Assembly (NCBI RefSeq): GCF_058153355.1
Contig: NZ_CM177019.1
Strand: one strand, 5' to 3'
Length of the DNA: 64,000 bases
This document shows positions 17,100 through 44,214 of this stretch, in pieces; within the stretch, counting starts at the first letter, position 1; every line of letters begins with the position of its first letter. The notes beneath the pieces were generated by a model. That model worked only from the letters and a program-made list of their open reading frames with translations. It searched no databases and was not told the DNA's origin. The position numbers and the translations under genes are program-made.

Positions 17100-17105
17100 T
17101 TCACA

Positions 17106-22257: not shown

Positions 22258-22357
22258 TTCCCGTTTTATTCAATGAGGGTTGCCCGGCAACCCTCATTGC
22301 TCATTGATTCTTATCTGTGTATCACCGTCATCATTCTCATCTGAGAACCAATCGAAA

Positions 22358-22585
22358 TTAACAACAGCCTTCTTCTGTATGCAGCAAGGCAAAAAGTTCT
22401 GTAACTCCATTGTTATTAACTGCACTGGTTACTAACACGTTGTGCGCTCCAGCTTCCCGTAACCAACTTTTCACCAAAGATATTTGTTCCATGCTGGCTA
22501 AATCTGCTTTGGTTACTACTCCAATGACCGGGTGATTCATGGCCCGGTAGGGCGTTTTTACCTCTAATTCCTGCTTCAGCGCTGA
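22358..22585 (-). pseudogene. Fragment of EutP/PduV-like GTPase (yoeF-like island-edge remnant)
   Basis: C-terminal-like peptide ...NHPVIGVVTKADLASMEQISLVKSWLREAGAHNVLVTSAVNNNGVTELFALL with no intact N-terminus; the upstream part of the ORF is antisense to an IS66-like fragment. Confidence 0.4.
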
Positions 22586-22599
22586 GATTCCTGCTTGTT

Positions 22600-22770
22600 G
22601 CCGGAAAAGCAGGCACCTGCCGTCTGAACGGTATCGATCCGGAAGCGTATCTGCGCCATATTCTGAGCATACTGCCGGAATGGCCCTCCAACCGTGTTGA
22701 CGAACTCCTGCCATGGAACGTAGTTCTCACCAATAAATAAGCGTCAATACGGTGCTCCGTTGACGCTGAT
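22600..22770 (+). mobile_element. IS66-family transposase 3' remnant and terminal repeat tip
   Basis: Encodes ...GIDPEAYLRHILSILPEWPSNRVDELLPWNVVLTNK*, matching the C-terminus of the intact IS66-family TnpC at 41197-42768; end sequence resembles the IS66 terminal repeat. Confidence 0.7.
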
Positions 22771-24280
22771 ATGACTTTCCGTGTCAAACCGGAATCTCTA
22801 ATTTTGACGATTTTCTTTTTAGGTTTAATTCCCTGAGGGCGACGTAGCAGTAAATCCGACGGTGAATCACGCTGATATTCGCGGGTTGGATACCGCATTA
22901 CAGAGGTCCGTCATATGAGCCTGCCACTTTCTTACGTCGCGAATCAGCTTTGTTCCGCCGTCGCCAAGCGCTAACGTGGGTTACTCTTGTACCGGGCTAC
23001 GTCGCCTTCAGGGAACTGGTTATTCTCATTTTTTATTTGTGACATTGTGGTTGTTGTGCGACAGACATTGCTATTCGGCCCATATCCCAGATAAAACCCG
23101 CCAGCTCACGTGCAACAGCAACAATTGTAATATTGACATTCTTTCCTTTGGCCTGAAGTTTTCGATACCTCTTACAAAGCCTGAGTTGAGCATCCCATGC
23201 TCTGTCAATGACGGGGCGGGGTAAATTTTCCTGCCTTTTTTGTATTGCCGGACTGATGCGTGCCGGATGACGGTAACTCCACGCTGCCTCGACCAATAGC
23301 TTTCTGGCATAGCTGTTTCCGGCTTTGGTAATGCTGCCCTGATGTCTGCTTCCACCCGATGAATATTCTGATGGCGTGATACCAAACCATGACATCAGTT
23401 GTCGTGGATGTTCAAAACGGGTCAGATCACCCAGTTCAGAAATTAATCCAACCGCAGTAATAAACTGAATCCCTCGCATGGCTTGCAGCGCCTCTACTAC
23501 CGGATACAGCCTCCATTCGGTAACGGCCTCCTTCAGGGCGGATTCCAGCCGTTCACATTGTGCCTGCCGGTCTTCTATTGTACGACGGTGTTCGTCAAAA
23601 GCTAATTGTCGCCAGGGACTTTCGAATGAGTATTTGCTGAGCCAGCGTCGGTGTGCAGGGCCCCAATCTGCTCGCCCGACATAATGGACCCCATGAACCA
23701 GAAGAAACGATTTCAGACGTTGCCTTGCATGCCGTAAATCATCGCGGGCAGATGCCCATGCCCGGGCCAAATCCCGGAATGCCTCATCTTCAATGCCGGG
23801 TACGTAGACAGCAGAAAGATCTCCTGCACGCAGTGAACGCACAAGTCTGATGGCATCACGGCGATCGGTTTTAACCCGCTCCCCCGGTTTTTTCGGGATA
23901 AGTGAGGGGGCGCAGACCATGCAGTCAAAACCGGATTTCACCAGCCGACGATAAAGTCCATAACCACAGGGCCCCGCTTCATAAACGATACTGACCTGCG
24001 ATGACTTTGACCTGAGACGTTTACAAAGATTCTGAATATCAGTAGGTGATGTGCCAATTTTACCCATCAGTTCAACAGGTTCTGAATTGATAGCATAAGC
24101 GACAGTAATCGATTCTTTGTGAACATCTAACCCGACGTACAATGTGTTATTGTTGTTCATGCTGGCCTCCGTGGTGGAAATACCGGGGTGTAGCAACAGC
24201 TCACCCATGCGGCTCTGACAACGATGTTAACCCGCGTTAAATATCCCACGTTGGCCAGCATCTGTCTCACGGAAAGTCAT
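22771..24280 (-). mobile_element. IS110-family insertion sequence, copy 1 (about 1,510 bp, 13-bp imperfect terminal inverted repeats ATGACTTTCCGTG)
   Basis: Identical to copy 2 at 54561-56070 in inverted orientation; ends atgactttccgtg (22771) and cacggaaagtcat (24268-24280). Confidence 0.85.
23033..24160 (-). CDS. IS110-family DEDD transposase/recombinase
   Basis: ORF 23033-24208; start set at MNNNNTLYVGLDVHK; N-terminal RuvC-like DEDD region (GLDVHK, YEAGPCGY, DRRDA) and C-terminal IS110 domain (ITKAGNSYARKLL). Confidence 0.88.
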   Translation of the reverse strand: MNNNNTLYVGLDVHKESITVAYAINSEPVELMGKIGTSPTDIQNLCKRLRSKSSQVSIVYEAGPCGYGLYRRLVKSGFDCMVCAPSLIPKKPGERVKTDRRDAIRLVRSLRAGDLSAVYVPGIEDEAFRDLARAWASARDDLRHARQRLKSFLLVHGVHYVGRADWGPAHRRWLSKYSFESPWRQLAFDEHRRTIEDRQAQCERLESALKEAVTEWRLYPVVEALQAMRGIQFITAVGLISELGDLTRFEHPRQLMSWFGITPSEYSSGGSRHQGSITKAGNSYARKLLVEAAWSYRHPARISPAIQKRQENLPRPVIDRAWDAQLRLCKRYRKLQAKGKNVNITIVAVARELAGFIWDMGRIAMSVAQQPQCHK

Positions 24281-24398
24281 ACTGCCTTACCTTTTCTCAG
24301 GCTATTTTTGCTTTTTTTTGCTTTTCCCCGCCACTTTATGGTGATTATCACATCAATATACATCGATAGATATTAACGTAACTGAAGTGAGGTGAAGC

Positions 24399-25613
24399 AT
24401 GAAATTTGAACGCCATCATGAAATATTGAAACGACTCAGTAAATTCGGTTCTGTAAAAGTATCCGATCTGTCCAATAGCCTCAATGTAACGAAAGAAACT
24501 ATTCGTTCAGATCTTAATGAACTTGCCAGGCTTGGCTATCTGACTCGATGTCATGGCGGTGCTTTTATCGTCCTAGACTCGCTTGATACTATTGCGAAAA
24601 ATGAAATCGCTTATGCGCTTGAAAATTATGATACAGCCCAGGGAATAAAAAAAGGCCACTCAACTATGAAAAGTCAAGTATGCGTTATTGGTTCGTTTAA
24701 TGTTGATATCATCAGTTATTTGCCGAGGCTTCCCACTATCGGAGAATCGCTTCTGGCAAGTAATTTTATATTTTCACCGGGGGGAAAAGGCTGTAACCAG
24801 GCGCTGGCAGCAAGCTTTGCCGATACTGATGTTTATTTCATAACAAAAGTAGGTACAGATCACTTTAGTGATTATGCGATCAACTTTATGAATTCGTCTA
24901 AGATTTATAAAAGTATAATTTATCAAACGAAAGAAACGCAAACCGGAACTGCCACGATCCTTGTTAATGAAGGTACTGGCGATAATGTTATTGCGATCTA
25001 TCCCGGTGCCAACATGACAATGTCGTCCGATGAAATAACTATTCAGAAAGAAGCGATTATTAATTCTGATGTCATACTTCTGCAGCTCGAAACAAATTAT
25101 ACCGCTCTGCAACAAGCGATCACATTGGCGCAAAAAAACAGTATCCCGGTCACTATTAACCCGGCACCCTATAATGATATCGTCAACGAACTTATTCAGG
25201 ATGTTGATTATATCACCCCCAATGAAACAGAAGCTGGTTTACTGTCCGGCATAGACGTACACGATCTTGAATCAGCTAAACGAGCTGCAGAAGCTATCCA
25301 CAATAAAGGGGTAAAAAACACGGTTATCACGCTCGGTAGCAAGGGCTCGCTCGCATTTGATGGCAAAAAATTCATTCATTCGCCAGCGTTTCCAGCGGTC
25401 GTTAAAAATACGGCAGGAGCCGGGGATGCGTTTAACGGCTCTCTGGCATCAGGACTTGCGAAAGGAAAATCACTGGAATCAGCACTGTGTTATGCCAGCG
25501 CCTTTGCATCCCTAGCGGTGGAGACAAGCAATGCTTCCGACATGCCTGAACATGAATCTGTGATACATCGAATTCAGAGTATACATTATCAGCAAACTAT
25601 TTTTACGCATTAA
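24399..25613 (+). CDS. DeoR-type HTH regulator fused to a PfkB/ribokinase-family sugar kinase domain
   Basis: 404-aa ORF; N-terminal 60 aa HTH (VSDLSNSLNVTKETIRSDLNELA), then PfkB motifs (GGKGCNQA; NTAGAGDAFNGSLA). Confidence 0.75.
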   Translation: MKFERHHEILKRLSKFGSVKVSDLSNSLNVTKETIRSDLNELARLGYLTRCHGGAFIVLDSLDTIAKNEIAYALENYDTAQGIKKGHSTMKSQVCVIGSFNVDIISYLPRLPTIGESLLASNFIFSPGGKGCNQALAASFADTDVYFITKVGTDHFSDYAINFMNSSKIYKSIIYQTKETQTGTATILVNEGTGDNVIAIYPGANMTMSSDEITIQKEAIINSDVILLQLETNYTALQQAITLAQKNSIPVTINPAPYNDIVNELIQDVDYITPNETEAGLLSGIDVHDLESAKRAAEAIHNKGVKNTVITLGSKGSLAFDGKKFIHSPAFPAVVKNTAGAGDAFNGSLASGLAKGKSLESALCYASAFASLAVETSNASDMPEHESVIHRIQSIHYQQTIFTH

Positions 25614-25626
25614 GAAGGGACAGAGA

Positions 25627-26385
25627 ATGAATAACACCAAAAAATCACTAAAAGTGCTCTTTATTGGGGAATCCTGGCATATTCATATGATTCATTCAAA
25701 AGGATATGACAGTTTTACCTCAAGTAAATATGAAGAAGGTGCGACCTGGTTACTCCAGTGTCTGAAAAATAGTCAGGTAGATGTCACCTATATGCCAGCA
25801 CATACGGTACAAATTGCCTTCCCTGAAGATGTGGCACAGTTAGAACAATATGATGCCATCGTTATTAGTGATATTGGTAGTAATACTTTCCTGCTACAAA
25901 ATGATACTTTTTATCAGCTTCGCATAAAACCAAACGCTCTCGAACTGATTAAAGAATATGTGAATAACGGTGGTGGGTTATTGATGATTGGCGGCTATCT
26001 CTCATTCATGGGAATTGAAGCAAAAGCCAATTATAAAAATACAGTTCTGGCTGATGTGCTCCCGGTTACGATGTTAGATGGTGACGATCGTGTCGAAAAA
26101 CCAGAGGGTGTTATTGCACAGCCATCACAACCTGAACATCCAGTTATTAAAGGGTTCTCTGAATATCCTTTTTTCCTAGGTTATAACCGGGCGATCGCTA
26201 AAGAAAATGCTGAGGTGGTATTAACAATAAACAACGCTCCATTACTGGTCTTTGGTAACTATCACAACGGGAAAATAGCCTGCTTTATGAGTGACTGTTC
26301 ACCGCACTGGGGTACACAGCAGTTTATGTCCTGGCCGTTCTATACCGCGTTGTGGGTAAATATACTGACTCATATTGCAAGATAA
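25627..26385 (+). CDS. ThuA-like / class I glutamine amidotransferase-like protein
   Basis: 252-aa ORF; family assignment by recognition of the overall sequence pattern, not verified. Confidence 0.55.
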   Translation: MNNTKKSLKVLFIGESWHIHMIHSKGYDSFTSSKYEEGATWLLQCLKNSQVDVTYMPAHTVQIAFPEDVAQLEQYDAIVISDIGSNTFLLQNDTFYQLRIKPNALELIKEYVNNGGGLLMIGGYLSFMGIEAKANYKNTVLADVLPVTMLDGDDRVEKPEGVIAQPSQPEHPVIKGFSEYPFFLGYNRAIAKENAEVVLTINNAPLLVFGNYHNGKIACFMSDCSPHWGTQQFMSWPFYTALWVNILTHIAR

Positions 26386-26441
26386 TAATAATAATGGGGT
26401 AACTCCAGTTACTCCATTTACTATAATAGAAGGATTGATGT

Positions 26442-27407
26442 ATGAAAAAGAATAAGTACTCAACTCCCTTATGGATGCTTGCCACGATTCTTGCGGGTAT
26501 GCTCTCCCCTATGCAATCAGCGGTGAATGGTCAATTAGGTCACTGGTTACAGGATGGTAATGCATGCGCAGTTATCTCCTTTGCCAGTGGTTTAGTCGTG
26601 ATGTTTTTTATTATTATGGCGCGAAAAGAAACCCGGCAACAATTTGCGGCAATTCCTTCTCTGATTAAAAACCGAAAAGTTCCTCTCTGGAACTGGTTTG
26701 CCGGTCTCTGTGGAGCGATGGTGGTATTTTCTGAAGGCGCATCAGCCAGCGCACTCGGGGTCGCAACGTTTCAAACCGCACTGATCTCCGCGCTATTGCT
26801 GTCTGGTTTACTTTGCGATCGCTTTGGTATCGGTGTCGACGAGAAAAAATACTTTACCCCTTATCGCATCATCGGTGCATTATTTGCGGTTATTGCTACG
26901 ATTTTTGTTGTGTCACCTCAGTGGCATTCTACCTCTTTCATCTTACTTGCCATTCTTCCGTTCTTAGCTGGTTTGCTTGCAGGATGGCAGCCCGCTGGAA
27001 ATGCAAAAGTAGCTGAAGCTACGGGATCCATGCTGGTTTCAATCACCTAGAATTTCATCGTTGGATTTTGTGTTTTAGGCACAGCGCTAGCTATTCGTGT
27101 CGCATTAGGGCACGTCACTGTTCAATTACCAGATGTCTGGTGGATGTATCTTGGCGGCCCGCTTGGACTAATGTCTATCGGTTTAATGGCCATTTTGGTC
27201 AGAGGTCTGGGGTTACTGATGCTGGGGGGTGCTTCAACGGCGGGCCAGTTACTGGGATCAGTATTGATTGACGTATTAATTCCATCGCTGGGCAATAGCG
27301 TTTATCTGGTCACGATCATCGGAACACTGTTTGCACTGGTCGGTGCAATTGTTACCACTATTCCGGAATACAGAACCTCGAAAACAATGAAGAAAATGGA
27401 GGTATAA
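26442..27407 (+). pseudogene. DMT-superfamily (YdcZ/DUF606-like) membrane transporter interrupted by an in-frame TAG
   Basis: Two same-frame ORFs (26442-27050, 27144-27407) separated only by TAG at 27048-27050; frame stays open and hydrophobic across the stop. Confidence 0.65.
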
Positions 27408-27483
27408 TCATGAAAGATTATCTACAAACTGTGACGGGCCCCGTCGCCCGTGAAGATATGGGGCTAACACTTTGGATTTGCCC

Positions 27484-28389
27484 CTATATTTCCAGACACC
27501 TGTTATCACTTAACCCATTACTGGCCTGCTGCCGCAGATATTCCCGTGGCGAGCGATAACCCAGTGCACTATGCGGATGCCATTCGTTATAATGCTCGAA
27601 CGCCTCTGCAAGGTTCTTTGCTGCCGTTAACCCGTCTGGTTTAGGCATGATACTGATGTAGTCACGCTTTATCGTTTTCACGAAGCTCTCTGCTATGCCG
27701 TTACTCTCCGGACTCCGCACCGCCGTGTTCTTCGGTTCAAGCCCCAACATCCGGGCAAACTGCCGTGTTTCATTAGCCCGGTAGCATGAACCATTATCCG
27801 TCAGCCACTCTACTGGAGACGCCGGAAGCTCGTTGCCGAAGCGGCGTTCCACCGCTCCCAGCATTACGTCCTGTACTGTTTCACTGTCGAAGCCGCCCGT
27901 AGTGACTGCCCAGTGCAGTGCCTCACGGTCACAGCAGTCCAGCGCGAACGTGACTCGCAGTTTTTCTCCGTTATCACAGCGGAACTCGAACCCGTCAGAG
28001 CACCATCGTTGATTGCTTTCTTTCACGGCCACTTTGCCAGTATGTGCCCGTTTCGATGGCGGTACAGCGGTTTTTCGCTCAAGCAACAGCGCATTCTGGC
28101 GCATGATCCGGTAAACACGTTTGGCATTGATCGCAGGCATACCATCAAGTTCGGCCTGTCTGCGAAGCAGCGCCCATACCCGACGATAACCATACGTGGG
28201 CAGCTCTCCGATAACATGGTGTATACGGAGAAGCACATCCGTATCATCTGAGTGACGGCTGCGGCGACCATCTTTCCAGTCATCGGTTCGTCTGAGAATT
28301 ACGTGCAACTGCGCACGCGACACCCGGAGACAACGGCTGACTAAGCTTACTCCCCATCCCCGGGCAATAAGGGCGCGTGCGCTATCCAC
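27484..28389 (-). CDS. insD: IS2 transposase OrfB (InsD, DDE integrase domain)
   Basis: 301-aa ORF recognised as IS2 OrfB. Confidence 0.9.
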
Positions 28390-28712
28390 TTTTTTGCATG
28401 CCCGTATTCAACGGCTTCTTTAAGGAGTTCATTTTCCATCGTTTTTTTGCCGAGCAGGCGCTGGAGTTCTTTAATCTGCTTCATGGCAGCAGCAAGTTCA
28501 GAGGCAGGAACGACCTGCTCTCCTGCGGCCACAGCAGTAAGACTTCCCTCCTGGTATTGCTTGCGCCAGAGAAATAACTGGCTGGCTGCCACACCGTGTT
28601 GCCGGGCAACAAGGGAGACCGTCATTCCCGGTTCAAAACTCTGCTGAACAATAGCGATCTTTTCCTGTGTAGTACGCCGTCTGCGTTTCTCCGGTCCTAA
28701 GACATCAATCAT
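28347..28712 (-). CDS. insC: IS2 OrfA (InsC, HTH)
   Basis: [41 protein letters not shown]; overlaps orfB in the -1 frame. Confidence 0.9.
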
Positions 28713-29789
28713 CTGCTCTCCAATGACTAGTCTAAAAACTAGTATTAAGACTATCACTTATTTAAGTGATATTGGTTGTCTGGAGATTCAGGGGGCCAGT
28801 CTACACTTCCTCATGAACATCTGTTCAACGATCTTTCCTCTGTTGTGGATGCTCCTTGCTATCCTTTTTCACAACGGCTTGTTGATAAAAAAGTCACGGC
28901 AGAAATCCAGTGGGCATTAAAACACGATCCTTATTGCTGCGCTGATAATATGGACCGCAAACCTATTGAAGATGTGATCTTCGAAATTAATAACTTTATC
29001 TCGCTCGGTGGTCGCACCATTATTGATGCCACAGGGTCTGAGTCTATCGGACGAGATGCGCAGGCATTACGAGAAGTCGCATTAAAAACAGGTCTGAATA
29101 TTGTTGCTTCCTCCGGTCCCTACCTGGAAAAATTTGAAAACCAGAGAATTCATAAAACGGTTGATGAACTGGCGACAACGATCGATAAAGAATTGAATCA
29201 AGGGATTGGCGATACGGATATTCGTGCCGGAATGATCGGTGAAATAGGTGTTTCACCGACATTTACCGAAGCCGAGCATAACAGCTTGCGGGCTGCCTCG
29301 CTGGCACAGATTAACAATCCTCATGTGGCGATGAATATTCACATGCCGGGCTGGCTTCGTCGCGGTGATGAAGTACTCGACATTGTGTTAGGTGAAATGG
29401 GCGTCTCGCCAAATAAAGTCTCTCTCGCACACTCGGATCCGTCAGGAAAAGACGTGGCGTATCAGCGGAAAATGCTTGATAAAGGTGTCTGGCTGGAATT
29501 CGACATGATTGGCCTAGACATTACCTTCCCGAAAGAGGGAATAGCGCCAGGGGTGCAGGAGACTGCCGATGCCGTCGCTCATCTCATTGAGTTGGGATAC
29601 GCCGATCAGCTTGTTCTCAGCCACGATGTCTTCCTTAAACAAATGTGGGCTAAAAATGGCGGTAATGGCTGGGGATTTGTTCCAGATGTTTTTCTGGCCT
29701 ATCTGGCGGAGCGCGGCGTCGATAAAACGATCCTCAAAAAACTCTGTATCGATAATCCCGGACGATTATTGACCGCATAAAACCATTAT

Positions 29790-29812
29790 CCCCCGGCACA
29801 TTGCGCCGGGGG
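29790..29812. terminator. Hairpin between the Php-like gene and the ggt fragment
   Basis: CCCCCGGC acattgc GCCGGGGG. Confidence 0.5.
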
Positions 29813-29819
29813 ATGTCAA

Positions 29820-30150
29820 TTAATACCCCGCCGTTAAATCATCCACCAAGCGCGAGTCGGATGCGCCGTACAACTCACCATCCGACCCAACCATAATGCT
29901 TTGCGTGCTGCCCATCGCCTCATTCAGCGCCACTTTCTGACCTTTTGCATCCAGCAGCTTGAGCGTATCCGGACTAAACCCTTTTCAACACGCAGCTCGT
30001 CCGGCAACCACTGATAGTGGAAACGAGGCGCATTGGTCGCTTCGGCAACATTCATTCCACAATTGATGCTGTTCACCACCATTTGCAGCACGGTAGTGAT
30101 GATCCAGCTACCGGTAACAAAGTGAGTACATAAAGGCCATACTGTCACGA
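29820..30150 (-). pseudogene. ggt: Gamma-glutamyltranspeptidase 3' fragment (frameshifted, 5' end missing)
   Basis: Minus-strand peptides ...IITTVLQMVVNSINCGMNVAEATNAPRFHYQWLPDELRVEKG and, in another frame, ...DSRLVDDLTAGY* match the GGT C-terminus; fragment abuts the ISL3-like element. Confidence 0.7.
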
Positions 30151-31907
30151 ACAGTGCAAAAGTGGCTCTTCCGCAACCTGGGTGAAGATTTTCATGCCAG
30201 TGGACTCATTACCCTCCGCCTAAGTAGTTCAAGTCCGGCTCGACCATACATCTGGCGTATCAGCACCTTCAGGCGATTTACATGACCTTCGACAACACCA
30301 GTACTCCAGCGACTGCTGATTGCCTCACATATAGCCGCAGCATCAGCTTCCATCCCCGCAGCTACGCACCGAAGTTCTGCTGAGCCGCTTTCGTGGACCC
30401 GAGTGAACCAGCTGCTTAGCTGTGATTTATTTTAGGTTTTCAGAATACGGTAGAACTCGAGTACCAGTTGCTGCGCTATTTTCAACTCCGGTTCTTTTTC
30501 ACACATCAGACTAATAAATCGGAAAGCATAATTTTCTTCACCCCTGATTATTCTCCAGGGCATCAACCAGCGGCTTACCCGGGACACTGAAGGAAGTCTT
30601 GCGGCAGTAGTAACCGGTGGGATCCAGCCTTTACGCCATTTGGCAACAGCATCCCTGACGATGGTTTCACTGCCTGTAACCCCCCTGGCCACCATTTCCC
30701 GCCATATCCGGCCGGAGTTATAATTACCACATTCTCGTTGCTCTTTTAACCACTCCCTCCATGGGTCCAGAAGCCCTCGCTTTGGAGGCCTAGTTGACAT
30801 TTCAGGGAATGTTCCTGAACCCACCCAGCGACTGACTGTCACTCGCGACAGGCCTGTAATACGGGATATTTCCCTGAAACTACATCCCTTGTTATGCAGG
30901 GCCATAACCTCTGTCCAACGCTGATGCCGTTTTTTGCGGATGTGCTGTTTAAGGCGTTCCAGACGACGGAGCGATGCTACAGGCACAGATATTTCTGGCT
31001 CAGGTGATTTCTTCAGTGATAACTCTCTGACAACAAGACGTATCAGAGGCATATGTCTGTACATCATTCGTTCAGGCTCATCACCAATATTTTTTAGCAG
31101 GTGCCATCGATCGGCCACCTGTCTGGCCTGAGGTGCACCTTCACGTGCTGCTGTCGCATAGACTCCACTGCGATCACGCGAGACAACCTGTATTTCCGGA
31201 TATTTTCTGAACCAGGTCGCCAGCGTACGCTGATCACGGCCGGGAAGCAGGACGAGGGGACGGTGAGTATCAAGATTGACTATTAACATACCGCAGCAGT
31301 GGCCCCGATGCCACGCCCACTCATCAATACCGACATGAGGCGCGCCTGACTGTTTCGTCTCCGGGGTATTGATAACCCTGCGAAGAAGAGTATCAGCACT
31401 GCAACGGAGACCCGCTGCCGTTGCAGCCCGTTTTCCAGCCTCACCTCCAGCTATTAATCCCAGTTGACGTTGTAAATTTTGTAACGCCTGTGAAGACTGC
31501 TGGTGTGAACCGGCGAAGGGAGCAAGCGACTCGGCAAAAATTTTACGTGAACAAGCCGGGTTACGGCAGTACCAGTGGCGGACGGAAAATACAAGCCATA
31601 GCGTCTGCCCTGAGCAGGGTAGATGCTGTATCCGGCGCCGACGACAACTATGAACAGAGTCGCTACGCTTAAAGCATTCAGGACATTGTGCTGTTTTGCG
31701 TTTTCCGTGGAGATGGAGGGTTATACCGTCAGAGCTAATAATTTGTCGACTGCATCGCCATCCGCAAGGTAACTGTAGAAGTGTCTTAAGAGAGTGCATT
31801 GCGTTGCCCATAACTTAAAACAGCTTAGATCCTTGTTCGCCAGAAAGTTTCATCCATTTTCTTCCACCCAGGTTGCGGAAGAACCACTTTTCATCCGTCG
31901 TTGACAG
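30142..31907 (-). mobile_element. ISL3-family insertion sequence with about 43-bp imperfect terminal inverted repeats
   Basis: Ends ctgtcacgaacagtgcaaaagtgGCTCTTCCGCAACCTGGGTG (30142-) and its inverted complement ending at 31907; encloses the transposase ORF. Confidence 0.75.
30432..31811 (-). CDS. ISL3-family transposase
   Basis: 459-aa ORF with N-terminal zinc-ribbon pattern (CPECFKRSDSVHSCRRRRIQHLPCSGQ...RHWYCRNPACSRKIFAE) typical of ISL3 transposases. Confidence 0.8.
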   Translation of the reverse strand: MGNAMHSLKTLLQLPCGWRCSRQIISSDGITLHLHGKRKTAQCPECFKRSDSVHSCRRRRIQHLPCSGQTLWLVFSVRHWYCRNPACSRKIFAESLAPFAGSHQQSSQALQNLQRQLGLIAGGEAGKRAATAAGLRCSADTLLRRVINTPETKQSGAPHVGIDEWAWHRGHCCGMLIVNLDTHRPLVLLPGRDQRTLATWFRKYPEIQVVSRDRSGVYATAAREGAPQARQVADRWHLLKNIGDEPERMMYRHMPLIRLVVRELSLKKSPEPEISVPVASLRRLERLKQHIRKKRHQRWTEVMALHNKGCSFREISRITGLSRVTVSRWVGSGTFPEMSTRPPKRGLLDPWREWLKEQRECGNYNSGRIWREMVARGVTGSETIVRDAVAKWRKGWIPPVTTAARLPSVSRVSRWLMPWRIIRGEENYAFRFISLMCEKEPELKIAQQLVLEFYRILKT

Positions 31908-32094
31908 ATGTGAAGTATGCGGGAGAAAAAGTGAATATCTAACTGTAATAACTCAGACCGGTACGAGTACTCGGAACGTCTACAATCATTCAGGGCAAAG
32001 TGCTAAAATTTCTCTATCCCGGGATGCCCCTACCAACGCAGCACTCCCGGAGATATCATTACAGCTCTGCAACTGATTTCCGCGACTGAACCGC

Positions 32095-32505
32095 TCAGTT
32101 CCTATCCTTCCAGTTGCCTTCCTGCAGCCCCCCCTCCCTGCTGTATACCCCGGTACCACAACGCGGGCAGCACTTTTCTCCTTCATAATCTTCGTCACAC
32201 ATCACACAAAACCACTTTCTCACCTTCACCGTATAATCCGGAACCGTCATACCCTGCAGATGCAAACGACGGGCCTCTTTCTCTGCCGGGTCAAGCCAGG
32301 TGCATCGCAGCAGGATTTTCTCAGCGACAGTCATCTGGTCATGTTCAAACCACGGTGGTTGTCCGTCATTGCCCCGCTGAAGTGTTAACGGGCATCCACA
32401 GGACACACAGCACAAAACGTCCTGGCGGTTGTGCTTCGCTGCTTCTTTCGCCGTAACAAAATGGCCTTTGCTGTCATTCGCCATATAACAGTTCAGAATT
32501 CGCAT
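32095..32505 (-). CDS. Cysteine-rich putative zinc-binding protein (paralog B)
   Basis: Start MRILNCYMANDSKGH after GGAGGAA RBS; CxxC...WFEH...CxxC-x7-CxxC pattern; tandem paralog of the upstream gene. Confidence 0.6.
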   Translation of the reverse strand: MRILNCYMANDSKGHFVTAKEAAKHNRQDVLCCVSCGCPLTLQRGNDGQPPWFEHDQMTVAEKILLRCTWLDPAEKEARRLHLQGMTVPDYTVKVRKWFCVMCDEDYEGEKCCPRCGTGVYSREGGLQEGNWKDRN

Positions 32506-32900
32506 ATTTCCTCCTGAGTTGTCCGGGGAATACTGAATCCTCCGGTCTGGCAGTGTGTGCAGTACCGCTCCCCATAATAATCGTGGTGACATTGTCTGCA
32601 GTGCCAGCTGGCTTTACGCACCACGGGTAAGGCACCCGGTACGAATTGCTGCAGACGTTTAATCAACTGTATTTCTCTGCGCTCCGGCCTGACATAAGGG
32701 CACTGTTGACCGTGCTCTGTCAGCCTGTCGTCAGTGTGTTCAAACCAGGGAAGTTCAGTGTCGTATTGCGGATGGTATCTGAGTGCACTGCCACACAAGT
32801 GGCAGGTGTAGTTAGCATAAGGTGCGGCCTGTGCAGTACGGGCGCCCGTCAGACGTCCGTTGCCATCAAGAGCGATAAAGGATTTTGCGTACATAGCCAT
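32493..32900 (-). CDS. Cysteine-rich putative zinc-binding protein (paralog A)
   Basis: 135-aa ORF MAMYAKSFIALDG...; CHLC...WFEH...CRQCHHDYYGERYCTHC; overlaps the start of paralog B. Confidence 0.6.
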   Translation of the reverse strand: MAMYAKSFIALDGNGRLTGARTAQAAPYANYTCHLCGSALRYHPQYDTELPWFEHTDDRLTEHGQQCPYVRPERREIQLIKRLQQFVPGALPVVRKASWHCRQCHHDYYGERYCTHCQTGGFSIPRTTQEEICEF

Positions 32901-33153
32901 ATTCCTCAGCCGCCAGACGACACGCAGGCAACAGCCGTCCCGGTACGGGCAGCGTGGTCAGGGTGTGAATGGCGGTTCAGTTAAAATCTGGACTGGAGTT
33001 TGGGTAAAGCAGGCTGGTTGCTGTTACAGCACTGTGGTTGTCACACAATGGAACACTGACGTAAAAAACAGTCAGTGGGCGAGTGGATACATCGTTGCCG
33101 CCAGACAACAACCCATACTTTTGGTTTGCCGGATATTGGCGCGCCAGTCGTGC

Positions 33154-33723
33154 TCAACTCCGGCTACAGCCAAAATTGCGCTCACCGGTGCAGTGAGCTT
33201 TGGTATGTTCCTTCGCCAGATAGTCAGCACGTTCCAGCACCTGCTGAAAGCCAGTGTCATCATCGCGTTCCAGCCACACCGCCGGCCAGGCCGGAAAATG
33301 CACCAGCGTGGCATGGCACCCGACATCCACTCCCAGGGCACTGCACCACGCCTGTTTAATCATCCCGGCCAGTGATCCCGGAGCACGGTAATCACCGGCA
33401 CGACACCAGGTATCCCGGTTAACCAGCAGCATCAGGTGATAGTGTTTTTTACCTTTGCACTCCCCAAACTCCCGGGCCCAGACGTAATGCAGGGTTGTGG
33501 GATGCACGCGTTTACCTTCCCGATGCTTACGTTTCTGGTAAGCGTCGATTCGGGCTTTCAGGGCATTGATGAAGCGGGATATCACAGCTGCGTCCGTTGC
33601 TGCCGGTACATCCGGGAAACGCAGGTCAACCCGCAATGCCGTCAGGCGGGGATGAACATTCAGTGCGTGCCGCACCGTCTCACGAATACGTTGCTGCCAG
33701 AAGGGGTTGTATTTGTAGGTCAT
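33154..33723 (-). CDS. YagK/YfjJ-family (inovirus Gp2-like) island protein
   Basis: ORF 33154-33759; start at MTYKYNPFWQQRIRETVRHALNVHPRLTALRVDLRFP, matching the YfjJ/YagK N-terminus. Confidence 0.7.
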   Translation of the reverse strand: MTYKYNPFWQQRIRETVRHALNVHPRLTALRVDLRFPDVPAATDAAVISRFINALKARIDAYQKRKHREGKRVHPTTLHYVWAREFGECKGKKHYHLMLLVNRDTWCRAGDYRAPGSLAGMIKQAWCSALGVDVGCHATLVHFPAWPAVWLERDDDTGFQQVLERADYLAKEHTKAHCTGERNFGCSRS

Positions 33724-35248
33724 GGTTAAATCTCCGTATGGTTCATACGGAATAGCCACGTCGTAAAAAATGCGCAGAGTCCCTGAAGTGACCTCCGGCA
33801 GGACACTGTCTCAGGCACTCTGTGATACCCCAACTATCGTCTCCGGACTGACGGTTGAATTTTCAGCGTTGTTTTTTTAATGTAAAAAACCGGTTACGGG
33901 TAAGGCTGTGAGGAGGGAGTGATGGTGATACGCAAAAAGAAGTGCAGGGACTGTGGAAACGCGATTACTCATAATACATGTTGCCCGTATTGTGGTTCTG
34001 TCGACCCCTTCGGCTATTACCGGAATACAGACCGTATCGTTACCATACTGCTGGCACTGATTATTGTGGTCCTGCTGACTACTGTCAGCGTCAGTCAGTG
34101 TGTATATACTGTGTAGCTGGTGAGATAACGGTTCATGTATCCCCTGAGCTGACAGTGTACCGGGTATATTAAGCGTAACCGACAGGTTCTCCTTCATACC
34201 ATATTAAATTTTTCCAGGTATTGCCGCTGCCTTATTTCGTCCCATACAGGAAAACTCGTCTGGGTTTCTGACAAATACGCGAAACTCACAGCCCCTCAAT
34301 ATCAACCACACGCTGTAAGCCGGTAATACCTGAAAATCAGCCTATTACCGCCCGCGCCTCCGTTACCGAACGCTCAGGTGACCAGACTGAAGCCCAGCAC
34401 GCACTCGTAAAATTTGCGGTCAGTTCCGTCAGTCAGTGGGCAACCGCAGAGTTACGGGCTTCCAGGTCCACAGGAGTGAGTCTATAACGCGTGTGGGAAA
34501 TCATTTTTTCTGGCGTTGACAGAACGCCTTACGGGCTGCCACTTACCCGGTGTCCCGCAATACAGCCTTAGTGTTCCGTTATCGGGGATCAGGACGCACC
34601 GCAACAACCGGGGAAGTATTTCTGGTTAGAGCTGTGTCAAGAGGGATTTCTCAGCCCCTCACTCACCGGCTCAGTCTCAGGGCAGAAGCATTAATACGCT
34701 CAGTTCATGTCTTATACAGGAATGGGCATGGGGGGAGCTGGCGTGTCACTGCTGATTTTACGCATCAGCGTTCATGTATCTGCACTCTGATACAGAATGC
34801 TTCACAGCGCTCTGTTACCGGAGAGATTTACTCTCTTAGGTTATTCTGGCAAATCCTTTACGTTACTCTCTGATGACTTCTTATATTTATAATACCAATC
34901 AGACAACCTTATCCCATCGGTGATATCAGTCTCCTGCTCGCCAGGAACGGGCTGACTCACTGTAACCACCTCCGAAAACAACTCTGCAATTATCAGAACG
35001 CCTGCTTCTCTCCCTGTCCTCACGAAAACTATCCCCTCTTTATCGCGCGTGCGTGCGGAAGCATCTTTTCGCAACAACCCCCCCGGGATTCCGCTACGGC
35101 TCTGCCATCGCAATCCCCCCGTTTATCTCCGGACAGCCACATTCCCGATTATTTTTTACGTTTCTCCCCGGTTGTTATGCCGGTGAAGGTGGCGCGCTGT
35201 TTTCATGACCACACCGGCTGGTTTAACAACATCCGGAGGAACATTCTC

Positions 35249-35455
35249 ATGGCTACCCCAGTTTCGCTGATGGATGACCAGATGGTCGACATGGCGTTTA
35301 TCACTCAACTGACCGGCCTAACCGATAAGTGGTTTGACAAACTCATCAAAGATGGGGGCTTTCCTGCGCCCATCAAAATGGGGCGCAGCTCCCGCTGGCT
35401 GAAAAGTGAAGTGGAAGCCTGGCTGCAGGCGCGTATTGCACAGTCCCGTCCGTAA
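35249..35455 (+). CDS. AlpA-family prophage regulatory protein (excisionase-like HTH)
   Basis: MATPVSLMDDQMVDMAFITQLTGLTDKWFDKLIKDGGFPAPIKMGRSSRWLKSEVEAWL; GGAGGA RBS 8 nt upstream. Confidence 0.8.
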   Translation: MATPVSLMDDQMVDMAFITQLTGLTDKWFDKLIKDGGFPAPIKMGRSSRWLKSEVEAWLQARIAQSRP

Positions 35456-35548: not shown

Positions 35549-36151
35549 ATGAAACAACAGTATCAGACCCGTTACGAGCTGCTCCATGAAAACTACCAGA
35601 AATGGCTGACCGGCTTCACCCGGCACGCCGTATCATGGGGCGTGTGTCATCCGAATATCTACTATTTCCATAATCTGACGCCCGGGTGGGTGTCATTCAA
35701 TGGCGAAAAACCGGAGATTGCCATCGTTCCCCAGAGTCTGCACCGGCTGATTTATGGTCCGGACAAACGGAGCTCCCCGTCCCTGGATGATGATCTGGTG
35801 GTGAATTTATGCACCAGCGAACACCTGCTGGTTCATCATCCGATGCTGGAAGGGATCCTGCTGTCTGAATGTGAGCGCCTGAAGCAACATTCTCTGGCAA
35901 ACAAACTGATCAGCCTCTTCCGTCAGTTTGGCGGCACGGAGTTACGTCTCAAACTGGTCTGGCTCTGCTGGCTTGACTTAATGACCGGAAACAGCCTTGA
36001 CGACTGGACGAAAAACCTGAAACACAAATCAGAAAAAGATCTGGAGCAATGGATCATTGCACGTCAGGGTCAGAGTGAACCACTGACAAATCTGATGGAT
36101 CAGTACGTGCTTATGGCATACCGTACATCGGTTGATGCCGCTCACAGTTGA
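35549..36151 (+). CDS. Hypothetical island protein
   Basis: About 200-aa ORF directly downstream of the alpA-like gene; no family recognised. Confidence 0.5.
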   Translation: MKQQYQTRYELLHENYQKWLTGFTRHAVSWGVCHPNIYYFHNLTPGWVSFNGEKPEIAIVPQSLHRLIYGPDKRSSPSLDDDLVVNLCTSEHLLVHHPMLEGILLSECERLKQHSLANKLISLFRQFGGTELRLKLVWLCWLDLMTGNSLDDWTKNLKHKSEKDLEQWIIARQGQSEPLTNLMDQYVLMAYRTSVDAAHS

Positions 36152-37012
36152 TGTCTGAGAACCACAGGCTGGCAGCAGAAAACCAGCCCTGTGGTAAAAT
36201 ACAGTAATAGCGGCGTACATCAGGCACGCCGCTCACTCGTCCACAGATCATATACGTCATTATACTGCGCGATAACGGAGGGCTTCAGCACCCGGTCATT
36301 TCTGAGCGGGTATGAATACCATTGATGATGCGAAGCAGCCACGGGCAGAAACGTTCTTCACAACCAGGTGCCTCCATCTTCACTGCAGTCTGAATGTGCC
36401 GGCTTGTTATCCACCAGAAATGGTATGCTCCGGTACATGCATACCCCGGAGACTATAAACGCACTGAATCATAGCCTCCCACCTCAGCAGGAGGCAGTCA
36501 GCTTTCAGGCGGAAAAACGTTGCAGTTAAAGATCGTGAGAATCGCTGTTTCGTTGCATAGCAACCCGAACAGTTGTAGTGAAACATTTTACCTGCATCAG
36601 CACATGGTCAGGCGCCGTCTGTATGGCGTGGAATACTGATGTTTCGGCTGATGGCAAGCCTCATTCTCTGTGGAAACAGGGGCGCGCATTAGCTTCTCAA
36701 CCAGAGAGTGTCACAAAGACAAATATTGCTGAAAATCGCATTCATCGTTCAGGCGTGAATGCCCGGAGACAAAAGCCGCTGTCCACACAGTCCCCCTCTG
36801 ACCTGAACAAAAAGCATACACACAACAGGCTCACCTGACCCCGAAAAACCATAACTTCAGCAATACCAGTGACACCAGCACGTTACCTCAGTGCCACATC
36901 TTCAGACCGCGATCAATCTGAAATGTGACTATCGGGGCAATATCCCTGCTTTGTGGTACACGATAACCAGAAAACATCCCCTGAACCGCCAGCCAGAAAG
37001 ACTGGCCACAAA

Positions 37013-38970
<1,958 letters not shown>

Positions 38971-40404
38971 AAGGGGTAAGCTGAAATCGTTTATGGATTA
39001 CATCGACATATGCCTGGCAGAGAATGTCCGGAATGACGAGGTTATCTTTGCGGAGATTAAGGCAATGGTATACGGGCCGACGTTCCATGCCGCGTTACTA
39101 CATTCAGCCCGGACGTAAAATGCGCCCGTCAAAAAGAACGGTTCGCTTCGAAACTCAGCCAGGATACCACCTCTCCGCCACACCCGAGAAGAAGTTGATA
39201 TGGTGGTTGCCGGACAACAGCGCTCCTGGATTGACTGCTGCATCACTCAACCACGCTGAATATCAAAGGAGAGCGTTACCGGTTAAAAGAGAAACGTAAA
39301 GCTGTGGTGATGACCCAAAACGCAACGCCTGTCAGTGAGGATGAAATGGTGAAAAGCGGACAGCATCAGTAACGGAAGTATCTTAGCGGGTACGAAAATG
39401 GCAGGATCGTGACATTGACAGAATATCTCCTGATCATCCTGAATGACTGCAGTTGCTGTAGAAAAGTAAGCTGTCTCCACCCACGGCACCACTTAACAGG
39501 CATTCCGTAACTTCCCCCAGACTTACTATGACGCATTATCGGTGCACTGAAAACGGGAGAGTGCGCTTAAAACCGCAGACCGCATGCGGGTGTTACTGCA
39601 TGACAGTCTGGCCGTATTGTGAGATGTCGGCAGGAACCGATGTCCGCGCAGGGGGGAACTTCCTGCAGTACCTGACGCTTCAAATGGTATTAACCGTAGG
39701 GTGTTGTTGGTTCCGGATCGCGGAAATGGGAGCACAGGTCTGCTACGGGGTGTACCTCTGACAGTATATCCGGCTCGCTCATCTGACAGCCTCTCTCCCG
39801 GAAAAGACCAAAAATGAGATCGTCTCCTCAACAGCAGAGAAGAGGTCTTGACAGACAGGCTACATTGCATACGATTTATGAAGAAAAAGACAGCAAATAT
39901 GGAGGTTATAGCGGAGAATACCCTACGAAATTCCTATGAAAAACGATTGAAAAAAATATCAAATTCGATTCGTTTTTATATGCTTTTTGGGAGCGTGGCG
40001 ATGACGAACTGTTGCATGTGCAGAGGAGAATGCACCCGGAAGCACCAGAATCATCCAGAAAGGCAGAACGATTACGCATCAAACCAGGAGACAGCAATAT
40101 CAAGGTAATATACTGATTTAAAATGAATTTACAGCAATACGTAAAAACATTTTTTACTTAAAGGAGACAGATGCGCTGAAGAGAGTGCAGGTATTTTTAT
40201 ATAAAAATGAGAAGTTTACGGGATGTATATCCGGCACACTATGACCGGAGAATATCAGTCAAGCTTAAAAAGACAATAAATACAGTGAGTTAAATACACA
40301 GAGAAAACGTAGTATCAGAGGGTACATCTGTAAGCGTCTTATCAGGACCGTCTGGCAAATTCCCGATGCTTTGGACAAAGTATCCACCACTAAATTAATA
40401 GTGG

Positions 40405-40833
40405 GTGATAAAAATGTCAGATATACAAAAAAATGCCTCTCCGGGAAGGCCTAAAGGGTGCCTGAATTATCCTCCTGAATTCAAACAACGACTCATAGAA
40501 GCATCATTCCAGCCAGGTGTTTCAATTTCCAGACTGGCCCTGGACAATGGTATTAATGCCAATCTGTTGTTCAAATGGCGTCAGAAATGGCGGCAGGGGA
40601 AGATAAAATTGCCATCATCAGAATCAGGCAGAGAATCTCAGTTAATTCCTGTCACTATTGATGCCCAACTCCCAACTGCTCCGGCTAATGAGCCACTGAC
40701 CGCAAGACCGTCAGTAACACCGGAAATACACAGCATCTCCTGTGAGATTACGTTCAGAAACGGCACCCTTCGGTTGAACGGGGCAGTGAATGAAAATCTG
40801 CTGTCCTTGCTTATACAGGAGCTGAGACGGTGA
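40405..40833 (+). CDS. IS66 family accessory protein TnpA (Orf1)
   Basis: 142-aa ORF, first gene of the IS66 module. Confidence 0.85.
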   Translation: MIKMSDIQKNASPGRPKGCLNYPPEFKQRLIEASFQPGVSISRLALDNGINANLLFKWRQKWRQGKIKLPSSESGRESQLIPVTIDAQLPTAPANEPLTARPSVTPEIHSISCEITFRNGTLRLNGAVNENLLSLLIQELRR

Positions 40834-41177
40834 TATCTCTCCCTGCAGGTTCGCGTATCTGGCTGGTTGCAGGTATCACCGATATGCGAAATGGCTTTAA
40901 CGGCCTGGCCTCAAAAGTTCAGAACGTCCTGAAGGATGACCCGTTCTCCGGGCATCTGTTCATCTTCCGCGGACGCCGGGGTGACCAGATAAAAGTGTTG
41001 TGGGCTGACAGTGACGGACTGTGCCTCTTCACCAGACGCCTGGAGCGGGGCCGCTTCGTCTGGCCGGTCACCCGTGACGGCAAGGTGCACCTTACTCCGG
41101 CCCAGTTATCCATGCTTCTTGAGGGCATCGACTGGAAACACCCGAAACGAACGGAACGCGCTGGCATCCGCATATAA
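40830..41177 (+). CDS. IS66 family TnpB (Orf2)
   Basis: 115-aa ORF MISLPAGSRIWLVAGITDMRNGFNGL typical of IS66 Orf2. Confidence 0.88.
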   Translation: MISLPAGSRIWLVAGITDMRNGFNGLASKVQNVLKDDPFSGHLFIFRGRRGDQIKVLWADSDGLCLFTRRLERGRFVWPVTRDGKVHLTPAQLSMLLEGIDWKHPKRTERAGIRI

Positions 41178-41196
41178 CCCGTTGTAAAGTGAGGAT

Positions 41197-42768
41197 ATGG
41201 ACACCTCACTTGCTCATGAGAATGCCCGCCTGCGGGCACTGTTGCAGACGCAACAGGACACCATCCGCCAGATGGCGAAATACAACCGCCTGCTCTCACA
41301 GCGGGTGGCGGCTTATGCTTCCGAAATCAACCGGCTGAAGGCGCTGGTTGCAAAACTGCAGCGCATGCAGTTCGGTAAAAGCTCAGAAAAACTTCGTGCA
41401 AAAACCGAACGGCAGATACAGGAAGCACAGGAGCGAATCAGCGCTCTTCAGGAAGAAATGGCGGAAACGCTGGGTGAGCAATATGACCCGGTACTGCCAT
41501 CTCCCCTGCGCCAGTCTTCAGCCCGTAAACCGTTACCTGCCTCACTTCCCCGTGAAACCCGGGTCATCCGTCCGGAAGAGGAATGCTGCCCGGCCTGTGG
41601 TGGCGAACTCAGTTCTCTGGGATGTGATGTGTCAGAGCAACTGGAGCTTATCAGCAGCGCCTTTAAGGTTATCGAAACACAACGTCCGAAACTGGCCTGT
41701 TGCCGGTGCGACCATATCGTGCAGGCTCCGGTGCCTTCAAAACCCATTGCACGCAGTTATGCCGGAGCGGGGCTTCTGGCCCATGTTGTCGCTGGAAAAT
41801 ATGCAGACCATCTGCCGTTATACCGCCAGTCAGAAATATACCGTCGTCAGGGCGTGGAGCTGAGCCGTGCCACACTGGGGCGCTGGACAGGTGCTGTTGC
41901 TGAACTGCTGGAACCGCTGTATGACATCCTGCGCCAGTATGTGCTGATGCCCGGTAAAGTCCATGCCGATGATATCCCCGTTCCGGTCCAGGAGCCGGGC
42001 AGCGGTAAAACAAGGACTGCCCGGCTGTGGGTCTACGTTCGTGATGACCGTAACGCCGGTTCGGAAATGCCTCCGGCGGTCTGGTTCGCGTACAGCCCGG
42101 ACCGGAAAGGTATCCATCCACAGAATCATCTGGCCGGTTACAGCGGAGTGCTTCAGGCCGATGCTTACGGTGGTTACCGGGCGTTGTACGAATCCGGCAG
42201 AATAACGGAAGCCGCATGTATGGCTCATGCCCGGAGAAAAATCCACGATGTGCATGCAAGAGTGCCCACCGACATCACCACGGAAGCCCTGCAGCGTATC
42301 GGTGAACTGTATGCCATCGAGGCAGAGGTCCGGGGCTGTTCAGCAGAACAGCGTCTGGCGGCAAGAAAAGCCAGAGCCGCGCCACTGATGCAGTCACTGT
42401 ATGACTGGATACAGCAACAGATGAAAACACTGTCGCGTCACTCGGACACGGCAAAAGCGTTCGCATACCTGCTGAAACAGTGGGATGCACTGAACGTGTA
42501 CTGCAGTAATGGCTGGGTGGAAATCGACAACAACATCGCAGAGAACGCCTTACGGGGAGTGGCCGTAGGCCGGAAAAACTGGCTCTTCGCGGGTTCTGAC
42601 AGCGGTGGTGAACATGCTGCGGTGTTGTACTCGCTGATCGGCACATGCCGTCTGAACAATGTGGAGCCAGAAAAGTGGCTGCGTTACGTCATTGAACATA
42701 TCCAGGACTGGCCGGCAAACCGGGTACGCGATCTGTTGCCCTGGAAAGTTGATCTGAGCTCTCAGTAA
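41197..42768 (+). CDS. IS66 family transposase TnpC (Orf3)
   Basis: 523-aa ORF with leucine-zipper N-terminus, CxxC zinc motif, DDE domain, C-terminus ...[10 protein letters not shown]. Confidence 0.9.
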
Positions 42769-44131: not shown

Positions 44132-44159
44132 TTTCAGACAGATATTATTTCCGTGAATC

Positions 44160-44198: not shown

Positions 44199-44214
44199 CA
44201 CCGGGAATACATGT

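Follow-up and report, generated by a model that had tools for sequence, protein, structure and literature searches.

An overlapping pair of zinc-ribbon genes in the backbone of CP4-like islands and its possible role as an adaptor for a Rep-like nuclease

What do two small, overlapping, cysteine-rich genes contribute to a genomic island that is otherwise decaying? The question is raised by positions 32,095 to 32,900 of the DNA analysed here, a stretch of 64,000 nucleotides (nt) from contig NZ_CM177019.1 of RefSeq assembly GCF_058153355.1 (hereafter the window). The two genes, which we call A and B, encode members of a family that is already known as a catalogued, uncharacterised one in Pfam and RefSeq. 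We found that they belong to the backbone, and not to the cargo, of the P4-integrase/AlpA-type islands of the Enterobacterales (‘CP4-like’ cryptic prophages and pathogenicity-island scaffolds), and we tentatively propose that they may act as a co-translated zinc adaptor for a Rep-like nuclease encoded next to them. The features on which this argument depends are the following.

32493..32894, minus strand: gene A, 133 residues, A-type protein with DUF7828 and Zn_ribbon_11 domains (open reading frame, Pfam; RefSeq WP_000270975.1, ‘putative zinc ribbon protein’)
32095..32505, minus strand: gene B, the second paralog, 136 residues (open reading frame, ATG preceded by AGGAGG, Pfam; RefSeq WP_001221617.1)
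32493..32505, minus strand: 13-nt overlap, with the stop of A over the start of B (sequence)
32902..32982, minus strand: leader of ~80 nt upstream of A, unannotated (cross-locus DNA alignment)
33154..33759, minus strand (RefSeq start 33723): YagK/YfjJ-family (‘inovirus Gp2 family’) gene directly upstream of A (PF11726, 162.5 bits, E 1e-47)
35249..35455, plus strand: AlpA/Vis-type helix-turn-helix gene of the same island, divergently placed (tblastn with Klebsiella AlpA, 65% identity, E 1e-25)
30432..31811, minus strand: ISL3-family transposase open reading frame immediately downstream of B (RefSeq pseudogene with an internal stop)

A preliminary description of this DNA, made from the letters alone, had proposed two adjacent, slightly overlapping minus-strand genes for paralogous proteins of about 135 residues with the same architecture, each with its own ribosome-binding site, and this picture held in all of its parts. 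The open reading frame of gene A as delimited mechanically (32493..32900, 135 residues) begins at an alternative upstream ATG at 32900; because GAGG lies 3 nt from that codon and 9 nt from the ATG at 32894, the latter, which is also the RefSeq start, is the likelier beginning of the gene. For gene B the mechanical frame (32095..32592) would encode 165 residues, and the ATG at 32505 is the start chosen by RefSeq and fits the N-terminus of every homolog. The AGGAGG Shine-Dalgarno sequence of B is situated within the 3′ end of A which, together with the overlap, is an arrangement typical of translational coupling. The overlap at other loci measures 13 nt (Klebsiella plasmid), 4 nt (an E. coli variant) or 1 nt (the locus designated L019). 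With 30% identity over 125 residues (BLASTP E 4e-15), the paralogy of the two proteins is well above chance.

Both proteins match DUF7828 (PF25165; 106.9 bits, E 4e-31 for A and 106.0 bits, E 8e-31 for B, against a cut-off of 25.7) and Zn_ribbon_11 (PF11682, formerly a DUF; 38.0 bits, E 1e-9 and 64.7 bits, E 6e-18, cut-off 24), the pattern of the latter being a W-x-C-x2-C-x3-Y-x-G-x3-C-x2-C knuckle pair. DUF7828 was matched by all 36 aligned homologs. The family is small, since a profile search found only 259 relatives among 1.84 billion representative proteins. Ligand conservation was read, in B numbering, from the alignment of 36 diverse full-length members, in which C33, C36, F53, H55, C100, C103, C113 and C116 are invariant and at least 90% of members also share C68, W98, G109 and G119. 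The N-terminal CxxC (C31/C34 in A, C33/C36 in B) and the central LPWFEH or PPWFEH motif of the preliminary description are present in both proteins. Its C-terminal cysteine cluster is present too, with a spacing that reads Cx2C-x9-Cx2C in both and not Cx2C-x7-Cx2C as first given. The two zinc-binding sites that it proposed correspond to two conserved clusters of metal ligands, the first of which we refine to C2-H-C (the CxxC pair, the histidine of WFEH and a downstream cysteine), the second being C4 (Cx2C-x9-Cx2C). These positions define two putative four-ligand sites, through which A and B are predicted to bind zinc:

Protein A: C31, C34, H53, C65 (predicted first site) and C99, C102, C112, C115 (predicted second site)
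Protein B: C33, C36, H55, C68 (predicted first site) and C100, C103, C113, C116 (predicted second site)

Structure prediction, which the preliminary description had suggested, gave a confident two-domain monomer. The AlphaFold2 model of B, built from a 99-sequence alignment, has a mean predicted local distance difference test (pLDDT) score of 86.8, with residues 1–70 above 92 and a predicted template modelling score of 0.56; an earlier run on six sequences was weak (pLDDT 66). A small β-rich N-domain is followed by a helix (residues 73–85) and a C-terminal ribbon. The N-domain appears to be distantly related to the zinc finger at the N-terminus of CoiA, without the protein being a CoiA family member: sub-threshold matches to CoiA_N occur in 13 of the 36 aligned members (best E 7e-5), B itself scores 12.4 bits (E 0.11, below the 26.3-bit cut-off) and A has no match. 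In the BFVD library this domain of ~66 residues matches over ~60–70 residues, including the N-terminus of a phage ‘Competence protein’ (probability 0.85). Neither Pfam nor the AlphaFold2 model places a nuclease domain after the zinc finger in A or B. Foldseek matches were mostly ribosomal zinc-ribbon proteins and were not significant, with Bxb1 serine recombinase and PriA among the weak ones; a PDB sequence search with a single protein gave no match, and NCBIfam and PHROGs gave no informative match for either. A profile search against PDB returned a gapless 77-residue match to RPB9 (E 0.006), which we judged to be a coincidence of cysteine pattern and rejected as a relationship, as the ligand set and the spacing of the C-ribbon differ (RPB9/TFS-type double ribbons join a C4 N-ribbon to a TFIIS-type C-ribbon, Cx2C-x~24-Cx2C) and there was no structural match.

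Both genes are real and under purifying selection, with ratios of nonsynonymous to synonymous substitution rates (dN/dS) of 0.11–0.25 for A and 0.05–0.22 for B in unsaturated comparisons. The window is a chromosome segment of Escherichia/Shigella type, and the 2 kb around the pair are 100% identical to many E. coli genomes. Among 5426 complete genomes of E. coli, 3786 (~70%) have the pair, which is co-distributed with YfjJ and occupies a median of two and at most seven places per genome. On plasmids it is rare, with 32 of 72,556 records, and orthologous pairs occur in Hafnia, Yokenella, Superficieibacter, Serratia and on Klebsiella plasmids. The family was absent from all 50,697 phage records searched, by which we ruled out a phage gene. 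In K-12, neither A, B nor YfjJ has left a copy or remnant in the two regions examined, CP4-44 (yeeH, yoeG, yoeH) and the yagG-intF part of CP4-6, except for yagK itself.

The preliminary description had also noted the adjoining YagK/YfjJ-family gene, and neighbourhood analysis extended this link to every locus examined, in most cases with alpA as well. A YfjJ-like gene, alpA and then one or two zinc-ribbon genes follow one another codirectionally in more than 12 independent loci, which come from several genera and include a Klebsiella plasmid, the fullest order being YfjJ – AlpA – A – variable second paralog – degenerate Gp2-like gene – DUF2913. The window departs from this in the place of its alpA, which in most other loci lies between YfjJ and A; its YfjJ gene, A and B are codirectional on the minus strand, with a spacer of 253 nt between YfjJ and A. 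At two loci (L009 and L019), an unannotated protein at the YfjJ position also has YfjJ motifs. The YfjJ–AlpA–zinc-ribbon arrangement diverges from the GTPase/antirestriction backbone and always stands at the border between backbone and variable cargo, which includes SMEK/CTD10/MC6, KwaA, HsdR, ars genes and resistance-nodulation-division (RND) efflux genes.

Within the module, the first zinc-ribbon gene is constant and the second is not. A neighbour-joining tree places the first gene of every pair in one tight A-type clade that spans Escherichia, Klebsiella, Hafnia, Yokenella, Superficieibacter and Serratia, and single-gene loci branch outside it. The second gene is of the B type in the window and at loci L004–L007, L019 and L029, of an ‘MQF’ type at L009, L018 and in the fusion protein P0194, and of further types at L027 and L023. 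The tandem duplication with divergence that the preliminary description had suggested is therefore borne out as paralogy and not as a recent local event: the breadth of the A-type clade indicates that the duplication is old.

The neighbour present at every locus examined is a candidate enzyme. The YfjJ protein of the window has RVDL, HYH and YLAK motifs, as in Rep proteins of the HUH type, and matches PHROG 25019 (E 6e-41) and, below cut-off, REP_ORF2-G2P (E 5e-5), and an alignment of intact homologs shows conservation of R43, D45, H106, H108, N114, Y180 and K183. PF11726 has served as a Rep model for Microviridae and Inoviridae (bioRxiv 10.1101/555375). On these motifs and profiles, YfjJ is a putative active HUH nuclease. 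A second, degenerate Gp2-like gene, short and with its RVD, HYH and Tyr motifs lost, directly follows the second zinc-ribbon gene in Hafnia, Yokenella, Superficieibacter and the Klebsiella plasmid, and lies further downstream in the E. coli variant (L027); DUF2913 comes next after it in Hafnia (L005) and on the Klebsiella plasmid (L029). The degenerate genes, with DUF2913, were located as follows.

Locus L029: 9493..10059 and 10136..10741
Loci L005–L007: ~6500..7050
Locus L027: 4078..4611

In the window, no match to the degenerate Gp2-like gene or to DUF2913 was found, and the ISL3 element stands where intact modules have these genes. One homolog, P0194 (454 residues), joins the two kinds of protein in a single chain, as a zinc-ribbon protein fused to a degenerate YfjJ-like domain. 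This domain resembles the intact YfjJ-like protein encoded next to it (BLASTP E 7e-24) but has lost near-invariant residues, being without equivalents of R43, D45, H106, N114, Y180 and K183.

Upstream of A lies a further constant element, the leader of ~80 nt, which is near-invariant among E. coli, the Klebsiella plasmid, Hafnia, Superficieibacter, Yokenella and a metagenome locus. In these same loci the A proteins are only 57–65% identical and synonymous sites are saturated, and across genera no protein of the module equals the leader in conservation. Every locus with an A-type gene has a single copy, in each case ~45–60 nt before the start of A, and the core of the element, CTGCCC-N3-6-GGGACGG, is kept in the most divergent of these loci; among the loci examined, none with a single-copy family gene has it upstream of that gene. 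The predicted fold, a long hairpin with imperfect pairing, has GCUGCCCG-UAC-CGGGACGGC at its centre, and its base abuts the Shine-Dalgarno sequence of A. A sequence alignment gave 83% paired cells, as against 25–42% in slid controls, with several GC-to-GU and AU-to-GU changes; a model-fitted alignment gave 88% paired and ten pairs changed on both sides, figures that are biased by the fitting and by two probable false matches. The z-scores of minimum free energy are mixed (–0.1 to –2.4), and Rfam has no match to the leader. In E. coli the distribution of the element follows that of the pair, and 3751 genomes have it, unannotated. As an mRNA leader it might control A, and B through coupling; alternatively, it may be a protein-binding or nicking hairpin.

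Taken together, we propose that A and B form a co-translated zinc adaptor (A·B) that acts for the Rep-like nuclease in the processing of island DNA, a reading that we hold as a serious possibility with somewhat less than even confidence. Each protein would consist of a β-hairpin zinc finger at the N-terminus (DUF7828), a helical linker and a Cx2C-x9-Cx2C zinc ribbon at the C-terminus (Zn_ribbon_11). The expression unit would start upstream of the YagK/YfjJ gene; since promoter and terminator scans did not rise above shuffled background, this operon structure is drawn from spacing and strand. A structured leader before A, and a start of B placed over the stop of A, would let both proteins appear together, and A, as the constant subunit, could then form with the variable B a zinc-stabilised, non-enzymatic adaptor. 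This A·B adaptor would bind the Rep-like nuclease, its catalytically dead paralog or both, together with a nucleic-acid target, and would direct or license the processing of island DNA after activation triggered by AlpA, whether by nicking, replication or mobilisation of the excised island. That A and B may act together, in the paired or heteromeric role suggested by the preliminary description, fits the conservation of gene order and overlaps, and a partnership with YfjJ or its dead paralog is suggested by the invariant adjacency and the one fusion. A contribution to target recognition or licensing, not catalysis, is what we infer from the lack of an enzymatic domain and from the relationship of the N-domain to the accessory finger of a DNA-junction nuclease. 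A bolder version, which we think unlikely though not negligible, is that the pair, the leader, YfjJ, the dead Gp2-like paralog and DUF2913 make up an unrecognised DNA-processing module for replication, mobilisation or control of excision, in which A·B would represent a new class of specificity or licensing factor for an HUH-type enzyme.

Several observations weigh against this proposal. Many DNA binders are basic, but these proteins are near-neutral (pI 6.9 and 7.6 for the pair; median of the family 7.6), and charge analysis gave no support to a strongly basic DNA-binding surface. K-12 yagK and yfjJ occur without A and B, so YfjJ does not strictly depend on the pair, and E. coli islands of the window type keep A and B though the degenerate Gp2-like gene and DUF2913 are gone. 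The P0194-type fusion comes from a single metagenomic contig. The interactions of A and B and their binding of nucleic acid are things that we infer, the assignment of YfjJ to the HUH nucleases comes from motifs and profiles, with REP_ORF2-G2P below its cut-off, and the linkage could come from common regulation instead of a common machine.

A regulatory role deserves the most thought here. P2 Ogr and P4 Delta are zinc-finger activators of late genes, Delta being a covalent tandem of two Ogr-like halves, and A and B could be transcription factors of this kind that activate backbone or cargo genes after AlpA and independently of YfjJ. That small two-zinc proteins are encoded where the AlpA/Vis-type regulatory region of P4-integrase islands borders the cargo would fit, as would the resemblance of the paralog pair to the Ogr-Ogr duplication of Delta and the weak, gapless match to RPB9, a double-ribbon subunit of RNA polymerase. 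Yet that match is driven by cysteines and concerns another type of C-terminal ribbon, the cysteine spacing is unlike that of Ogr, and Ogr_Delta is missing both from the families listed at E≤1 for the two proteins and from the 25 families most often matched by the 36 members. Activators would also leave unexplained the adjacency and fusion to a dead Gp2-like domain, and their neutral pI is unhelpful; we regard this explanation as unlikely, though not negligible. The cargo that begins directly beyond the pair raises another thought, that A and B are an autonomous accessory module for anti-phage defence, anti-defence or addiction, occupying the slot downstream of yfjJ that in CP4-57 of K-12 presumably holds AbpAB (yfjL/yfjK) and RnlAB. 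Several loci do have the pair directly beside variable defence cargo (SMEK/CTD10, KwaA, HsdR), and a two-gene overlapping operon with a fast-evolving, variable second gene would suit such a system. Defence cargo is patchy, however, whereas the pair occupies ~70% of E. coli genomes in multiple copies with position, leader and flanking backbone conserved and with a strongly conserved A clade. Nor do the proteins contain an enzymatic or toxin-like domain, match a relevant PHROG or give a meaningful match among the defence models of PADLOC-DB 2.0 (best PDC-S64, E 0.067 for B; none for A), and an accessory module seems to us quite improbable.

The leader suggests a different target. Zinc ribbons commonly bind RNA in ribosomal proteins, and if A and B were RNA-binding proteins of this sort, they might act on the leader of their own mRNA, as post-transcriptional autoregulators, or on another island transcript. 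Such a role would account for a leader that is more conserved than the proteins, is found solely with A-type genes, has a hairpin that ends at the Shine-Dalgarno sequence and shows changes from GC to GU and from AU to GU as expected for pairing of sense-strand RNA, and it would suit the mostly ribosomal, if not significant, Foldseek matches. Against it stand the mixed folding z-scores and a modest covariation that was partly produced by fitting the alignment to the model; moreover, AlpA or the Rep-like protein could just as well recognise the conserved hairpin as a DNA site, and adjacency is the sole link of the proteins to the leader. We consider RNA binding very doubtful. Finally, the preliminary description had allowed that the two frames might be unexpressed or pieces of a single larger decayed gene, and the surrounding island, riddled with insertion sequences (IS) and pseudogenes, together with the many truncated or chimeric copies in databases, makes it reasonable to ask whether A and B are non-functional remnants. 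Both proteins are nevertheless full-length family members with every ligand position intact; dN/dS lies at 0.05–0.25 in unsaturated comparisons, the exact sequences of A and of B, which are entries of RefSeq and nr, are each found on at least 1000 contigs, orthologous pairs have been kept across genera, and single-gene homologs are ~130 residues long as well. A single decayed gene is thereby refuted, and we hold this last explanation as a whole to be extremely improbable.

If the pair does target or license the Rep-like YfjJ, it would offer a concrete handle on island mobility. The CP4-like/pathogenicity-island scaffold ranks with the commonest backbones of mobile elements in E. coli, Shigella and Klebsiella. 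Adhesins, toxin-antitoxin pairs and defence systems are encoded on it, joined on Klebsiella plasmids by RND efflux genes (predicted resistance); the activation, copying and movement of these islands are poorly understood, and the zinc-ribbon pair is a near-universal, uncharacterised component of the backbone. Should the whole set prove to be a DNA-processing module, this would explain the persistence and spread of ‘cryptic’ CP4-type islands and pathogenicity-island scaffolds through ~70% of E. coli genomes. If A and B prove to be ordinary regulators, the outcome would be the routine annotation of a DUF. The leader is in either case a candidate new cis-regulatory element, unannotated in thousands of sequenced genomes.

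The comparison of loci yielded several further observations. At L019 (6001..6717), the homolog of the second gene (P0082, 238 residues) has an extra N-terminal copy of DUF7828 that lacks the C-terminal ribbon, a partial internal duplication. An unannotated, conserved open reading frame for 44 residues (MEKRRRTQP…RWTCPRCRRQYCGARPCPVCFRP) lies between alpA and the leader at L029 (~8322..8456, plus strand) and also at L005, L006, L007 and L023; it shows the Zn_ribbon_11 pattern W-x-C-x2-C-x3-Y-x-G-x3-C-x2-C, with a Pfam match below cut-off (E 0.021), differs between loci mostly at third codon positions and is absent from the window. In some E. coli forms of the module, a gene of the Hha/YmoA family is present between YfjJ and alpA, as at L026 (8410..8559) and L027 (7771..7927), and RefSeq annotates none in the window-type island of L001. 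On the Klebsiella pneumoniae IncFIB/IncHI1B plasmid (L029), the module lies ~3 kb from an RND efflux operon (13111..18390) of adaptor, permease and outer-membrane subunit, called adeF-like by rgi. The YfjJ-AlpA-A-B module recurs on many Klebsiella plasmids of 200–480 kb, and an island of this type has therefore moved onto resistance plasmids.

The island of the window is a CP4-44-type element with genes for a GTPase, a dynamin-like protein, DUF932, antirestriction, RadC/YeeS, YeeT and CbeA/CbtA and with many IS elements; it is heavily decayed (IS66, ISL3, IS100 and many pseudogenes). RefSeq labels its AlpA/Vis-type gene a ‘helix-turn-helix transcriptional regulator’. Between 31800 and 35600, a repeat search gave just the repeat of WFEH codons and short pairs at chance level, with no iteron-like array. 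Divergent from YfjJ, an open reading frame for 65 residues (33919..34116, plus strand; RefSeq hypothetical WP_001427456.1, no Pfam match above cut-off) has a zinc-ribbon motif, Cx2C-x9-Cx2C, and after it a hydrophobic segment that is probably transmembrane. In the same island of E. coli 14EC029 (L001, 28605..35295), with features matched in the window, a cluster of genes for GTPase-family, dynamin-family, RdcB-family and patatin-like phospholipase proteins looks like a candidate conflict or defence-type cargo operon. The island lies between a his/sbcB side and an asn-tRNA side, in the reverse of its orientation in NZ_CP024141.1, and the window contains these further features:

11144..11267, minus strand: his operon leader
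14006..14080, plus strand: small RNA STnc240
61455..61530 and 63864..63939, both minus strand: two tRNA-Asn genes

None of the complete E. coli genomes covered at least 80% of either 8000..32000 or 36000..60000 of the window. This suggests either that the DNA was inverted or rearranged through IS elements or that its source is Shigella-like.

RefSeq names the proteins of the family ‘putative zinc ribbon protein’ or ‘zinc-ribbon domain-containing protein’. The preliminary description gave their function as unknown, which matches the literature searched: no paper on the function of DUF7828 or Zn_ribbon_11 was found under these names, DUF3279, the accessions or the RefSeq name. In the Shigella SRL island, an open reading frame beside a YfjJ homolog, orf38, was listed with ‘no similarity’ (PMC6980539); judged from the gene order that it has in common with L026, it is probably one of the pair. 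The module architecture, the pattern of a constant A and a variable second gene, the link to a degenerate Gp2-like gene and the conserved leader appear to be unreported in that literature.

Among known systems, the closest is the family itself: A and B are full members of DUF7828 (PF25165) and Zn_ribbon_11 (PF11682) and differ from them in nothing, the families being without an assigned function. CoiA, a PD-(D/E)XK nuclease that resolves D-loops (bioRxiv 10.1101/2024.02.06.579203), has an N-terminal zinc finger with the same succession of CxxC, β-hairpin and aromatic-x-His, the last of these being WFEH in A and B. Unlike CoiA, A and B have no nuclease domain, their first site is C2-H-C where CoiA has a putative C2H2, and they carry an additional C4 ribbon. 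P2 Ogr and P4 Delta are likewise small zinc proteins of P4-integrase-type elements, and the duplication within Delta resembles the A/B pair, but there is no detectable sequence relationship, the number of domains differs, and Ogr has CX2C-X22-CX4C where A and B have Cx2C-x9-Cx2C. Compared with the zinc modules for DNA recognition that are carried by HUH/Rep-type and recombinase enzymes, such as the large serine recombinases, A and B differ in being a separate protein pair and in having a fused partner that is catalytically degenerate; the likeness is that they stand beside, and in one case are fused to, a Rep-like domain.

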